The notes under the pieces are model-generated. The model worked only from the letters and a program-made list of their open reading frames with translations. It ran no database searches and was not told where the DNA came from. From Phenylobacterium sp. (lineage in GTDB: Bacteria > Pseudomonadota > Alphaproteobacteria > Caulobacterales > Caulobacteraceae), in contig NZ_JAKRSA010000015.1 in the NCBI RefSeq assembly GCF_022402485.1, positions 49,270 to 113,269 of the forward strand: a stretch of DNA of 64,000 bases. Reading direction: 5' to 3'. This document shows, piece after piece, positions 14,918-17,717 of the stretch. A program made the translations under genes and the position numbers. Each line of letters opens with the position of its first letter. Position 1 is the first letter of the stretch.

Positions 14918-14994
14918 TGGTCGGAGTGGCAGGATTCGAACCTGCGACCCCCGCGTCCCGAACGCGGTGCTCTACCAGACTGAGCCACACTCCG
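14918..14994 (-). tRNA. tRNA-Pro (CGG)
   Basis: CGGAGTG acceptor stem, anticodon arm CCGCG-TTCGGGA-CGCGG, GGTTCGAATCC T-arm, encoded CCA; 77 nt. Confidence 0.97.
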
Positions 14995-15123: not shown

Positions 15124-15197
15124 TGGGGAATGGTGTAATGGTAACACAGCGGTTTTTGGTACCGTCATTCTAGGTTCGAGTCCTAGTTCCCCAGCCA
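15124..15197 (+). tRNA. tRNA-Gln (TTG), integration target
   Basis: TGGGGAA...; anticodon arm GCGGT-TTTTGGT-ACCGT; GGTTCGAGTCC; ends CCA; 74 nt. Confidence 0.97.
15148..15197 (+). repeat. attL core, 50-bp direct repeat (3' part of tRNA-Gln)
   Basis: AGCGGTTTTTGGTACCGTCATTCTAGGTTCGAGTCCTAGTTCCCCAGCCA, identical to 17668-17717. Confidence 0.95.
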
Positions 15198-15492
15198 GTT
15201 TTTTCCTTCAAAATCAAAATCTTGAGCCGATCTTGGTCGCTCCTAAATTTCCTCTTGGATGTAGGATGCATTCCTACGTCCTGTAAACGGGACCGGCTTA
15301 AGCTCTTACTTTGCGGGAAGCATGGCTGCACCCGAATGACGGCGTGGCTGCCAGCAGTCGAGGCCCAAGCGGGGGCTAACCTGTTTGAGTTTGCCGGGCG
15401 GCCTGAGCCCTTGCCTGAAGTCGCGAGCATGTGGATCACGCAATTATAGCGACGCTCTTCGTGTTGCAACTGTTCCGCGAATTGCGCACACT

Positions 15493-15680
15493 TCGCAGGC
15501 CTCTTAGCTGGGTGAAACACCGGACTTGCGAGGTGTCACTCTATGCCGGGCGCGTAGCCAGGCTGAATTCGATTGCGCGGGATTGGGCGCCGACTTCGGA
15601 ATCCGGAGCCGGTCCCGGCCTGCGTCTCGGCACCGGCTCCGGATTCCGAAGTCGGCCGCTTTAAGTAAGAGGATCTGTGG
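15493..15680 (+). ncRNA. Retron msr-msd ncRNA
   Basis: a1 CCTCTTA (15500-06) followed by G15507 in an AGC context; a2 TAAGAGG (15666-72); pairing extends 7 more bp with one bulge and G-U pairs; small msr hairpins (GGTG-aaa-CACC; CTATGC/GCGTAG); 25-bp perfect msd stem 15589-613/15632-656. Confidence 0.85.
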
Positions 15681-16595
15681 TTGGATCACCCGCTGATTGA
15701 GGAAGCAAATAGTAACCTCCGCAAGCGGGTGATCCAGCTTCTCCAAATGGGCTACAGCGTAGCTCGGGGTGGAAACATTGTCTTTGTGTGTGGCGGAAAT
15801 GAAGTTCACCACATGAGGACCAGATTCCGACAGTATTGTGCAGCTCATCTTAGCGAATTCGAGATATTTTTCCCTGAATTCGCAATGAAAGACTATTTTT
15901 CTTCATCCATTCCGGAGCCATTCGATATTGCTGACTTTGAGTATATTGTTGGCGAGTTATCGCATGCCATCGTTATATTCCCAGAGGCGCCTGGTTCATT
16001 TGCGGAGACTGGATATTTTTCTGCCATAGATAAATTGTCAGAAAAGACAATTCTAGCCCTAGACGCTCCAAGACAAGAATTCGATAGTTTTATTTCAATG
16101 GGTCCAGCGAAAAAGATCGCTGCAAAGTCTATCTTCCAACCGAATGTGCAGATGGATTACCAAGAGCCGACATTTGAATTAGTCGCATCGAGAATTAGGC
16201 GTCTGTCAGTCGCGAAAAATAGAAAACTTCTGAAAGTTGAAAGGTTTAATGATCTTACCGCCTTTGAACTATTTGCCCTCATACATCGTATTGTGACAAT
16301 TCTGTCAATCGCAACGATTGACGATATCATATATATAATGAGAGGCATTTTTAAATCCATAGTATCCGTTTCGAAAATTCGGCATATGGCTTCAATTCTT
16401 GTGGGATGCGAATACATAAAATCAATTGGAAAATATGGACACTATTATGCAAGAAAAGACAAATCTACTCTTTTAGAGGTCAGAAGCGGATTTGTAAATC
16501 AAGAGACAGACATAAGAATTCTTTTGGCCGGCATATATGAAGTTGGAGATTCCGAGTTTATCGAAATCATAGAGGCGTCGATGAATGCTGATTGA
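15681..16595 (+). CDS. Retron effector (St85/Ec86-like: NDT-like N-terminal domain plus C-terminal wHTH-like region)
   Basis: IVFVCGG, IFFPE, AIVIFPEAPGSFAETGYF (E-x-x-GS-x-x-E-x-G-x-F), DSFISMGP; 304 aa; TTG start right after a2; 11-nt overlap with the RT. Confidence 0.85.
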   Translation: MDHPLIEEANSNLRKRVIQLLQMGYSVARGGNIVFVCGGNEVHHMRTRFRQYCAAHLSEFEIFFPEFAMKDYFSSSIPEPFDIADFEYIVGELSHAIVIFPEAPGSFAETGYFSAIDKLSEKTILALDAPRQEFDSFISMGPAKKIAAKSIFQPNVQMDYQEPTFELVASRIRRLSVAKNRKLLKVERFNDLTAFELFALIHRIVTILSIATIDDIIYIMRGIFKSIVSVSKIRHMASILVGCEYIKSIGKYGHYYARKDKSTLLEVRSGFVNQETDIRILLAGIYEVGDSEFIEIIEASMNAD

Positions 16596-17529
16596 TCGAT
16601 TGTGCAAGCAGACAGGCCTAACGCGCGCGCAGATTGACCGGTATGCGGAAACTGCGTCCAATCGATATAAGACTTATTCAATTTTGAAGCGCAATGGTAA
16701 TGAACGAATTATTTCTCAGCCCAGTCGAGAAATTAAAGCCTTGCAGCGATGGTTGGTGAGGGTGCTTTTTCAGCATTTTCCAGTTCACCAGTCTGCGACC
16801 GCTTATGCGAAGGGGTCTAGTATTCGAATTAATGCGGAGCGTCACGTCGACTCAAACTATACGCTTAGAGTGGACTTTCAGGACTTTTTTAGCTCATTCC
16901 GTTCTGAAGATGTTGGCAGATTTTTGAGTGTATCAAACCAAAAATTGAATTTTGATATTAGATTAGAAGATATTTCGATCATCACAAAAATTGTTTCACG
17001 GCATGGCAGGTTAACTGTTGGGGCGCCATCATCGCCGATGCTAACAAATATAATGATGTACGACTTTGATTATCATTTGAATAAATGGGCGTGCGAGCGC
17101 GATGTCGTGTATACAAGATACGCAGATGACATTTTTCTTTCGGCAATGAAAGGAGAGCACTTAAATGGAGCGATGGGGTCTATATCAAGTTTTGCGAGTG
17201 ATTTTGTATTAGCTGATATAAAAATAAATAGTCAAAAGACGGTCTTTCTTTCCAGAAAGGCGCGTAGATCTATTACAGGTTTAGTAATTACAACTGATAG
17301 AGATGTATCTATAGGTAGAGATCGGAAACGTAAGATAAAATCATTAATATATTTACAGAAAATGGGAATATTAGAGAATTCAAAACTATCATACTTGCGA
17401 GGGATGTTGTCTTTTATTTCTGATGTAGAACCTGAATTCTATGAGACCTTGTCGCGTAAGTTTGGCGATTCATTTGTTTCGGCGATTATGAATGGAGCAG
17501 AGACTGGTGTCGAGGACGCTCTGTTCTGA
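16585..17529 (+). CDS. Retron reverse transcriptase
   Basis: RIISQPSREIKALQRW, region X NAERH, VDFQDFFSS, LTVGAPSSPMLTN, YTRYADDIFLS, region Y SITGLVI, SIGRDRKR; 314 aa; no extra domain. Confidence 0.96.
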   Translation: MLIDRLCKQTGLTRAQIDRYAETASNRYKTYSILKRNGNERIISQPSREIKALQRWLVRVLFQHFPVHQSATAYAKGSSIRINAERHVDSNYTLRVDFQDFFSSFRSEDVGRFLSVSNQKLNFDIRLEDISIITKIVSRHGRLTVGAPSSPMLTNIMMYDFDYHLNKWACERDVVYTRYADDIFLSAMKGEHLNGAMGSISSFASDFVLADIKINSQKTVFLSRKARRSITGLVITTDRDVSIGRDRKRKIKSLIYLQKMGILENSKLSYLRGMLSFISDVEPEFYETLSRKFGDSFVSAIMNGAETGVEDALF

Positions 17530-17667
17530 CGGTTCTTTGACAAAGATAAATCGGAATGCGCCCGGATTGTCCAATGTACGCTTGGGCTTTCCGACTAAGT
17601 TTCTGATCTTATTGGCGAAGTTAGAAGTGCAATTTTCAGTTAGTGTATTGAACTAGCTATAGCATCT

Positions 17668-17717
17668 AGCGGTTTTTGGTACCGTCATTCTAGGTTCGAG
17701 TCCTAGTTCCCCAGCCA
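17668..17717 (+). repeat. attR core, duplicated 3' 50 nt of tRNA-Gln
   Basis: Exact copy of 15148-15197; lacks the 5' acceptor/D arm, so not a functional tRNA. Confidence 0.95.

Follow-up and report, generated by a model that had tools for sequence, protein, structure and literature searches.

The window analysed here is a 64,000-nucleotide stretch of DNA from Phenylobacterium sp. (NCBI RefSeq assembly GCF_022402485.1, contig NZ_JAKRSA010000015.1, positions 49,270 to 113,269 of the forward strand), and all positions below are counted from its first letter. Between 15500 and 17529 its + strand possesses a msr-msd non-coding RNA (ncRNA), an effector gene and a reverse transcriptase (RT) gene, in this order. 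Judged from its sequence, the locus is very probably an intact type II-A1 retron of the Sen2/St85 family, the sole cargo of a low-GC tRNA-Gln islet and anti-phage by homology.

Effector and reverse transcriptase genes

The effector gene (RcaT family; 15681-16595, + strand) encodes 304 amino acids from a TTG start with AAGAGG ahead of it, and its translation contains the motifs IVFVCGG and FPEAPGSFAETGYF. The retron RT gene (St85 family, clade 1; 16585-17529, + strand) encodes 314 amino acids and keeps NAERH, YADD and ITG, i.e. the NAxxH, YxDD and VTG-type motifs of retron RTs. Both genes overlap by 11 nt (16585-16595), an arrangement that suggests translational coupling. The two open reading frames (ORFs), their motifs and the overlap had been named in a first-pass annotation of this DNA, and a check of the ORFs found all of them as described.

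The RT matches 68 families in PADLOC, and the best 25 of these 68 are all RT models. RT_II-A scores highest (model PDLC02939, 3.1e-105, 350 bits), followed by RT_I-A (3.5e-86, 287 bits). The NCBIfam model NF038233, "retron St85 family RNA-directed DNA polymerase", is passed with 322.5 bits (cut-off 235), and Pfam RVT_1 is matched as well. Models of group II introns, Drt2 and Drt3 reach 41, 38 and 26 bits, far under their cut-offs. Matches to the retron RTs in the PDB range from 3e-53 to 1.6e-38; closest among the solved structures are Ec78 and Ec83 (3e-53 to 5e-51), and the RT of Ec86 is a weaker match (4.6e-39). The effector matches PADLOC NDT_II-A over residues 15-279 (3.3e-48) and the NCBIfam equivalog NF038232, "retron St85 family effector protein", with 168.3 bits (cut-off 100). 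The first-pass annotation had seen a complete tripartite retron here; on the PADLOC and St85 scores its central reading, an intact tripartite type II-A retron, holds.

In sequence comparisons with the PDB the effector finds the Ec86 effector (4.8e-15), aligned over the N-domain only. Glu109 of the motif PGSF(T/A)E aligns with the Ec86-effector residue that is Ala in the inactive mutant 8qbl; like the CGG and FPE.PGS motifs, it is invariant across 25 effector homologues. An AlphaFold2 model of the effector (pLDDT 89.8, pTM 0.87) has its sole strong Foldseek matches in the PDB to the Retron-Eco1 effector (304-306 columns, E 3e-11 to 1e-9), and its N-domain finds weak matches (E ~0.02-0.2) to the N-glycosidases BcmB, MilB and DNPH1. 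The full-length fold match and the N-glycosidase matches together point to the two-domain RcaT architecture: in the predicted structure, an N-terminal NDT-like N-glycosidase fold is followed by a C-terminal DNA-binding domain. A sub-threshold match to Pfam AtTam38 was disregarded; the Pfam library used predates the STM3845 family PF28093.

The msr-msd RNA and the effector start

The ncRNA occupies 15500-15672 (~173 nt, + strand), as delimited by alignments, RNAalifold and pair counts. It opens with a1 CCTCTTA (15500-15506), which pairs with a2 TAAGAGG (15666-15672); the helix continues with two further base pairs (15508-15509 with 15664-15665), and G15507, in the context TTAGC, is bulged from the duplex as the candidate branching G. 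An a1 that ends in TTA and is followed by the branching G presumably resembles that of Ec86. Two msr stem-loops (15510-15541 and 15545-15563) are followed by a near-perfect msd hairpin (15586-15660) with a 29-nt inverted repeat (15589-15617 and 15628-15656, 97% complementary). Folding of the ncRNA segment against shuffles yields z = -6.1.

The same RNA is located directly 5' of the effector gene in 35 distinct related loci, drawn from named alphaproteobacterial genomes, metagenomes and the nearest protein relatives. In the alignment of 35 sequences, 97.1% of the cells are standard pairs and 29 of the 50 pairs show changes in both partners; the covariation score is not attained in any of 500 shuffles, and the pairing falls to 31-50% when the partners are shifted by 1 to 3 columns. 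Across loci the msd hairpin has a conserved base and tip, and its middle is hypervariable yet perfectly compensated. A covariance model built from 18 relatives gives the window the top score, 174 bits. By this comparative evidence, which is decisive, the upstream RNA is a real retron ncRNA. The first-pass annotation had let a msr-msd-like RNA start at 15493: the RNA itself is borne out by covariation in the 35 loci, its start is not, as the conserved core begins at 15500. Homology to other retron loci (blastn) starts at islet position ~302, i.e. at window position 15499 and thus at a1.

Several candidates were discarded. A scan of Rfam (E<=1) matched no retron family, and the miRNA-like matches that it gave on either strand of the long msd hairpin are spurious. 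An extended a1/a2 duplex (15493-15499 with 15674-15680) was dropped, since the comparison supports only the 7 (+2) bp core. Two alternative a1 segments, ATTGCGCAC at 15481, which we take to resemble the a1 of Ec86, and TGTGGATCAC at 15430 (with 15729-15743), were rejected because they have no conserved partner, lie 5' of the conserved -35 element and precede the point where homology starts.

A double-stranded GANTC site is present in the msd stem (15599-15646, + strand), where GAATC (15599-15603) pairs with GATTC (15642-15646). The methyltransferase CcrM recognises GANTC, and the host genome possesses one CcrM orthologue (match to 6pbd, 2.4e-203). Double-stranded GANTC sites occur in 11 of the 35 related msd stems, at two recurrent positions, and GANTC is the commonest interrupted palindrome of the variable stem segment. 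The occurrences are phylogenetically clustered, and in the nearest relatives (L067 and L070) the site is absent or hemi; for these reasons its enrichment was set aside as evidence and kept as a lead only.

A putative promoter precedes the ncRNA (15464-15492, + strand), with -35 TTGCAA (15464-15469), a 17-nt spacer and -10 CACACT (15487-15492). Of 38 related loci, 33 have a TTG 34-37 nt 5' of a1, a conserved position that supports the promoter and a transcription start at or near a1. At the other end of the RNA, a2 lies 5-11 nt ahead of the effector start in 19 of the 19 loci examined, window included. This position suggests that a2 doubles as the effector's Shine-Dalgarno sequence: in the translation-initiation region of the window (15666-15736, + strand), AAGAGG is part of a2 and the TTG start follows at 15681. 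The start codon is enclosed in a strong hairpin with a perfect 13-bp stem (15682-15694 with 15724-15736), kept with covariation in 32 loci (L011-L058 among them). Its covariation score is 0.326, against 0.178 in shuffles (0 of 500 reach it) and at most 0.141 in slid controls; the codon-2 wobble base, for example, changes in concert with the opening base of a Val/Ile codon (CG 12, UA 9, GC 3). Compensatory changes in the hairpin link a synonymous site with a Val/Ile/Met codon.

With this hairpin, and with a2 as Shine-Dalgarno sequence, the entire effector translation-initiation region would be base-paired. In Sen2, msd deletions lowered RcaT expression (10.1101/2020.06.22.160168), an effect to which the structure of the start region may relate. 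The riboregulator of the type VI retron Vpa2, with its sequestered ribosome-binding site and start codon, resembles this arrangement; it differs in retron type and effector, and its msDNA (multicopy single-stranded DNA) derepresses translation, a control that is hypothetical for the present locus (10.1101/2025.10.22.683967). A short direct repeat, GATTG, that would link msd and initiation hairpin was looked for by analogy with type VI; judged by eye it is not conserved, and it was rejected.

The tRNA-Gln islet

The retron lies 3' of a tRNA-Gln(UUG) gene (15124-15197, + strand; ARAGORN, Rfam), which served as integration target; the assembly has no other tRNA-Gln. The 3' part of this tRNA is an attL-like 50-nt direct repeat (15148-15197, + strand), whose attR-like copy (17668-17717, + strand) is 100% identical, has a spacing of 2520 and ends the islet. 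The islet thus comprises 2520 bp, with the retron and its two ORFs as sole cargo. The left spacer (15198-15463) is unique and without a credible ORF, and blastn finds no homologues of the spacers 15198-15499 and 17530-17667 in other retron loci or elsewhere in the genome. The 2470 unique bases have a GC content of 44% and the genes one of 40-41%, against 65.9% in the genome. No integrase is encoded in the 2520 bp, and seven matches to PF00589 (tyrosine recombinase) are located on other contigs; one therefore has to postulate either a recombinase supplied in trans or an integrase that was lost afterwards.

Contigs of the source run in Logan break exactly at the 50-nt repeat and yield an islet contig of 2530 nt. 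In a congener (G002) the site is empty, with an intact tRNA directly followed by the right flank. A metagenome contig of another study, from a near-identical strain, joins 15147 to 17668, which is the precise empty site, and has 0 differences in 348 nt of the left flank. A further freshwater run of that study (X4) contains a near-identical strain with a different insert of 1730 nt at the same tRNA-Gln site (15197/17825). As in tRNA-integrated islands, both borders carry tRNA 3'-end repeats, the composition is foreign and the site is empty in relatives. Empty, occupied by the retron or occupied by other cargo, this tRNA-Gln site exists in three allelic states and amounts to a hot spot of defence-cassette turnover without a resident integrase.

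Other inserts are found behind the same tRNA-Gln in the congeners G010 (L032, C2:178900-189000) and G012 (L033, C15:1000-11000), each 8.8 kb long and with a degenerate tRNA 3'-end copy (92-95%) as its border. The insert of G010 contains the operon kdpA-kdpB-kdpC-kdpD-kdpE, with no integrase among the Pfam-scanned ORFs; that of G012 has the same size and ORF layout, and the kdp identification comes from G010 alone. A tRNA-Pro(CGG) gene (14918-14994, - strand) lies 130 nt 5' of tRNA-Gln, so that the islet is located in a tRNA-pair region.

Neorhizobium galegae (L012:2035-4654) has a related II-A1 retron in a 2572-bp unit that contains no other cargo and lies between 48-nt direct repeats of the 3' end of tRNA-Thr(CGU). 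This unit is an independent second retron-only, integrase-less tRNA islet. Most related loci are low-GC two-gene cassettes within high-GC flanks. Repeats, composition, empty sites and parallel cassettes together argue that the retron travels as a minimal cassette. Integrase-less, att-flanked islets are known as cis-mobilizable elements (CIME-like). The present islet agrees with them in its att-like tRNA 3'-end repeats, foreign composition, precise empty sites in relatives and lack of a recombinase; it differs in comprising only 2.5 kb and one defence operon, and its mobilisation in trans is hypothetical.

Among the remaining relatives, L050 forms a 2886-bp unit with a 36-nt non-tRNA repeat, and L045 has a tRNA-Phe at a distance of 250 nt. 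Many metagenomic contigs with these retrons are only 1.8-2.9 kb long (L039-L054 among them) and start 70-350 nt before the ncRNA, which fits assembly breaks at flanking repeats or strain-variable insertion borders, as in the source run.

Subtype, mode of action and relatives

Subtype II-A1 is defined by RTs of clade 1 and an ncRNA shared with type I-A and includes Sen2, Vch2 and Eco3/Ec73; II-A3 is defined by RTs of clade 9, with Eco1/Ec86 and Vch3 (Mestre 2020, PMC7736814). On its sequence, the present retron is assigned to II-A1 (Sen2, Eco9, Ec73) and not to II-A3 (Ec86), because its RT is nearer to the clade-1 RTs (Ec78/Ec83, 3e-53) than to Ec86 (4.6e-39); placement in clade 1 is by proxy, from profile scores and PDB matches. 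A clade-9 RT closest to Ec86, as in II-A3, was not found, the Ec86 RT being a weaker match and the Ec86 effector aligning over the N-domain only. The Sen2 operon consists of msrmsd, STM14_4640 (STM3845), i.e. rcaT, and rrtT, with the toxin gene directly 3' of msd (10.1101/2020.06.22.160168), and an extra ORF between msr-msd and ret is reported for Eco3, Sen2 and Vch2 (PMC11701397). With its order ncRNA-effector-RT, the present locus thus has the Sen2 layout msrmsd-rcaT-rrtT, which is canonical for II-A1. The first-pass annotation had considered this layout unlike that of Eco1 and Sen2, which is wrong for Sen2, and had likened it to a "II-A3/Ec73 layout", which mixes two subtypes: Ec73 belongs to II-A1 with Sen2, and II-A3 is the subtype of Ec86 (PMC7736814).

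Sen2 (St85) of Salmonella Typhimurium and Eco9, with Sen2 compared via family models and publications, agree with the present locus in the order msr-msd, effector (RcaT) and RT, in the St85 equivalog models passed by both proteins, in the catalytic Glu (E107 in Sen2, Glu109 here), in the tripartite toxin-antitoxin organisation assigned by homology and in a msd hairpin with a palindromic site of adenine-methylation type. This site is GATC (Dam) in Sen2 but GANTC (CcrM), and lower in the stem, here; the alphaproteobacterial host (Phenylobacterium, 66% GC) and the stand-alone 2.5-kb tRNA-Gln islet are further differences. Eco3 (Ec73) and Vch2 (Vc81)/Vmi1 are likewise II-A1 retrons with an ORF between msr-msd and ret (PMC7736814; PMC11701397). 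Ec73 rides a P4-like retronphage and Vmi1 is located in a dusA island with integrases, whereas the present islet is without phage or integrase genes. The type I-A retrons Ec78 and Ec83 have the closest solved RTs (3e-53 to 5e-51), and I-A and II-A1 share the ncRNA-RT module (Mestre 2020, PMC7736814); in type I-A, however, the effector module consists of an ATPase and an HNH protein (Septu-like) and not of an NDT-like protein.

One operon, with the conserved -35 element upstream, encodes the ~173-nt msr-msd RNA, the RcaT-type effector and the RT. By homology with Sen2, Eco9 and Eco1, it would work as follows. The RT would prime on the 2'-OH of G15507 and copy the msd template leftwards from ~15663-15664, yielding a msDNA of ~80-90 nt whose hairpin is double-stranded DNA. 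RT-msDNA would bind RcaT dimers and keep the effector inactive, until a phage methyltransferase, nuclease or single-stranded-DNA-binding protein acts on the msDNA by modification, degradation or binding and so releases or activates the effector, which would then halt the infected cell, i.e. cause abortive infection. Toxicity in Sen2 requires that the freed effector assemble into tetramers (10.64898/2026.10.13.758329). The 2520-bp low-GC islet itself inserted at the tRNA-Gln 3' end, of which 50 bp were duplicated.

Several points weigh against an intact, anti-phage II-A1 retron in this islet. The effector is only ~19% identical to the only solved effector (Eco1), and the conserved a1/a2 core comprises only 7 (+2) bp. 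The putative -10 element CACACT is weak, and a generic consensus promoter/terminator scan found neither the proposed promoter nor any terminator. Synthesis of msDNA, toxicity, neutralisation and phage protection are attributed to the locus by homology only, and there is no islet integrase to account for its mobility. The label "toxin" may not apply, because some RcaTs are non-toxic dimers.

This last point touches the alternative of a II-A retron that works like Eco1, with an intrinsically dimeric, non-toxic NADase or ADP-ribosyltransferase active only in triggered RT-msDNA filaments instead of a free toxin restrained by an antitoxin, which we consider rather unlikely. The Eco1 effector is the only solved structural match, and the effector agrees with it in the two-domain fold, with full-length Foldseek matches to 7xjg, 8qbk and 8qbl, and in the motif PGSFxE. 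Within the RcaT family there are toxic, tetramer-forming clades and non-toxic, dimeric ones, between which the sequence family alone is not predictive (10.64898/2026.10.13.758329). RT and effector nevertheless score best with the St85/Sen2 models, the RT is nearer to the clade-1 RTs than to Ec86, the gene order is that of Sen2, and Eco1 belongs to the non-toxic clade 1, whereas Sen2 and Eco9 belong to the toxic clade 3 (10.64898/2026.10.13.758329). Eco1 differs furthermore in its RT clade (4.6e-39 to Ec86 vs 3e-53 to Ec78) and in the ~19% identity of its effector, which is non-toxic and dimeric. In Eco1 the RT gene stands before the effector gene, unlike here. The depletion of NAD+ that the first-pass annotation had brought up is overstated for the present locus: hydrolysis is documented for Eco1, and the target of Sen2-type effectors is still unknown (10.64898/2026.10.13.758329).

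A horizontally acquired retron cassette that is unexpressed or non-functional in its host, i.e. an inactive relic, would account for the weak -10 element, the very foreign codon and GC composition (0.40-0.41 vs 0.66) and an islet without a mobility gene, and degenerate relatives do exist (L027/L056, with truncated msd and effector). Such a relic is very unlikely, as neither ORF is truncated and every catalytic or family-invariant residue is kept, the window ncRNA has the highest family-model score among all loci, and the 50-nt repeats are still 100% identical, suggesting a recent insertion. An RT of another class (group II intron, diversity-generating retroelement, abortive-infection (Abi)/UG, or I-A with a swapped effector) beside an incidental hairpin could draw on the 287 bits of RT_I-A and on the best PDB matches, the I-A RTs Ec78 and Ec83. 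These scores, however, fit the known ncRNA-RT module shared by I-A and II-A1 (PMC7736814), the group II intron, Drt2 and Drt3 models stay far below their cut-offs (41, 38 and 26 bits), and there is no ATPase/HNH partner, the adjacent gene being the NDT_II-A/STM3845 equivalog. Since the ncRNA moreover covaries beside the same gene pair in 35 loci, this reading is effectively refuted.

An intact II-A1 retron in this genus suits two questions: whether methylation sensing by retrons extends from Dam/GATC to CcrM/GANTC, and whether the a1/a2 duplex and the start-codon hairpin gate the translation of a type II effector. In the host, CcrM is restricted to a brief phase of the cell cycle, and this short presence would leave the multicopy msDNA largely unmethylated. 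In Sen2 the single GATC of the msd stem senses Dam, and the host Dam under-methylates the multicopy msDNA (10.1101/2020.06.22.160242). The literature searched contains no relevant paper on a link between retrons and CcrM. A combined model, in which GANTC senses phage CcrM-like methyltransferases, effector translation is RNA-gated and the 2.5-kb att-flanked cassette is mobilised in trans, is distinctly unlikely as a whole; if true, it would add two control layers so far undescribed for type II retrons.

The source of the window is a freshwater metagenome. Flanking genes share 83-89% identity with proteins from Phenylobacterium metagenome-assembled genomes (MAGs), so that the host, a CcrM-containing relative of the model organism Caulobacter with its well-studied phages, was correctly recognised as Caulobacteraceae-like in the first-pass annotation. 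The interest that the same annotation saw in an alphaproteobacterial example, the characterised members known to it being enterobacterial, is overstated, as alphaproteobacterial members are common. In protein searches 2051 matches to the RT reach E<=1e-20 and 313 to the effector reach E<=1e-5; NCBI already names many of them "retron St85 family", among others in Caulobacter, Parvibaculum, Pelagibius, Rhizobium, Terasakiella, Blastochloris and Azospirillum. Identity to the nearest relatives is 63-65% for the RT and 70% for the effector. Among species representatives, 3 of 150 further genomes of the genus and 5 of 400 further ones drawn from the class possess the effector family, with no match in the control genomes; such a patchy distribution is usual for defence genes. 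Annotation of the locus is routine, as both genes would receive their names from the NCBI pipeline and alphaproteobacterial members of the family number in the hundreds. The compact locus thus adds one member to the II-A1 retron family and is not a new kind of system.

Two groups of relatives deviate in their RNA. In L027/L056 (a Novosphingobium MAG) the msd hairpin is cut to ~38 nt and the effector match covers only residues 1-136, probably a decaying retron. L035 and L036 (G016 and G108), from two other species-representative genomes of the same genus, possess a more Sen2-like effector (~192 bits to NF038232). The RNA upstream of L036 barely matches the window-family model R1 (28 bits), and such a poor RNA match beside the L035/L036 effector points to a second II-A ncRNA lineage in the genus.

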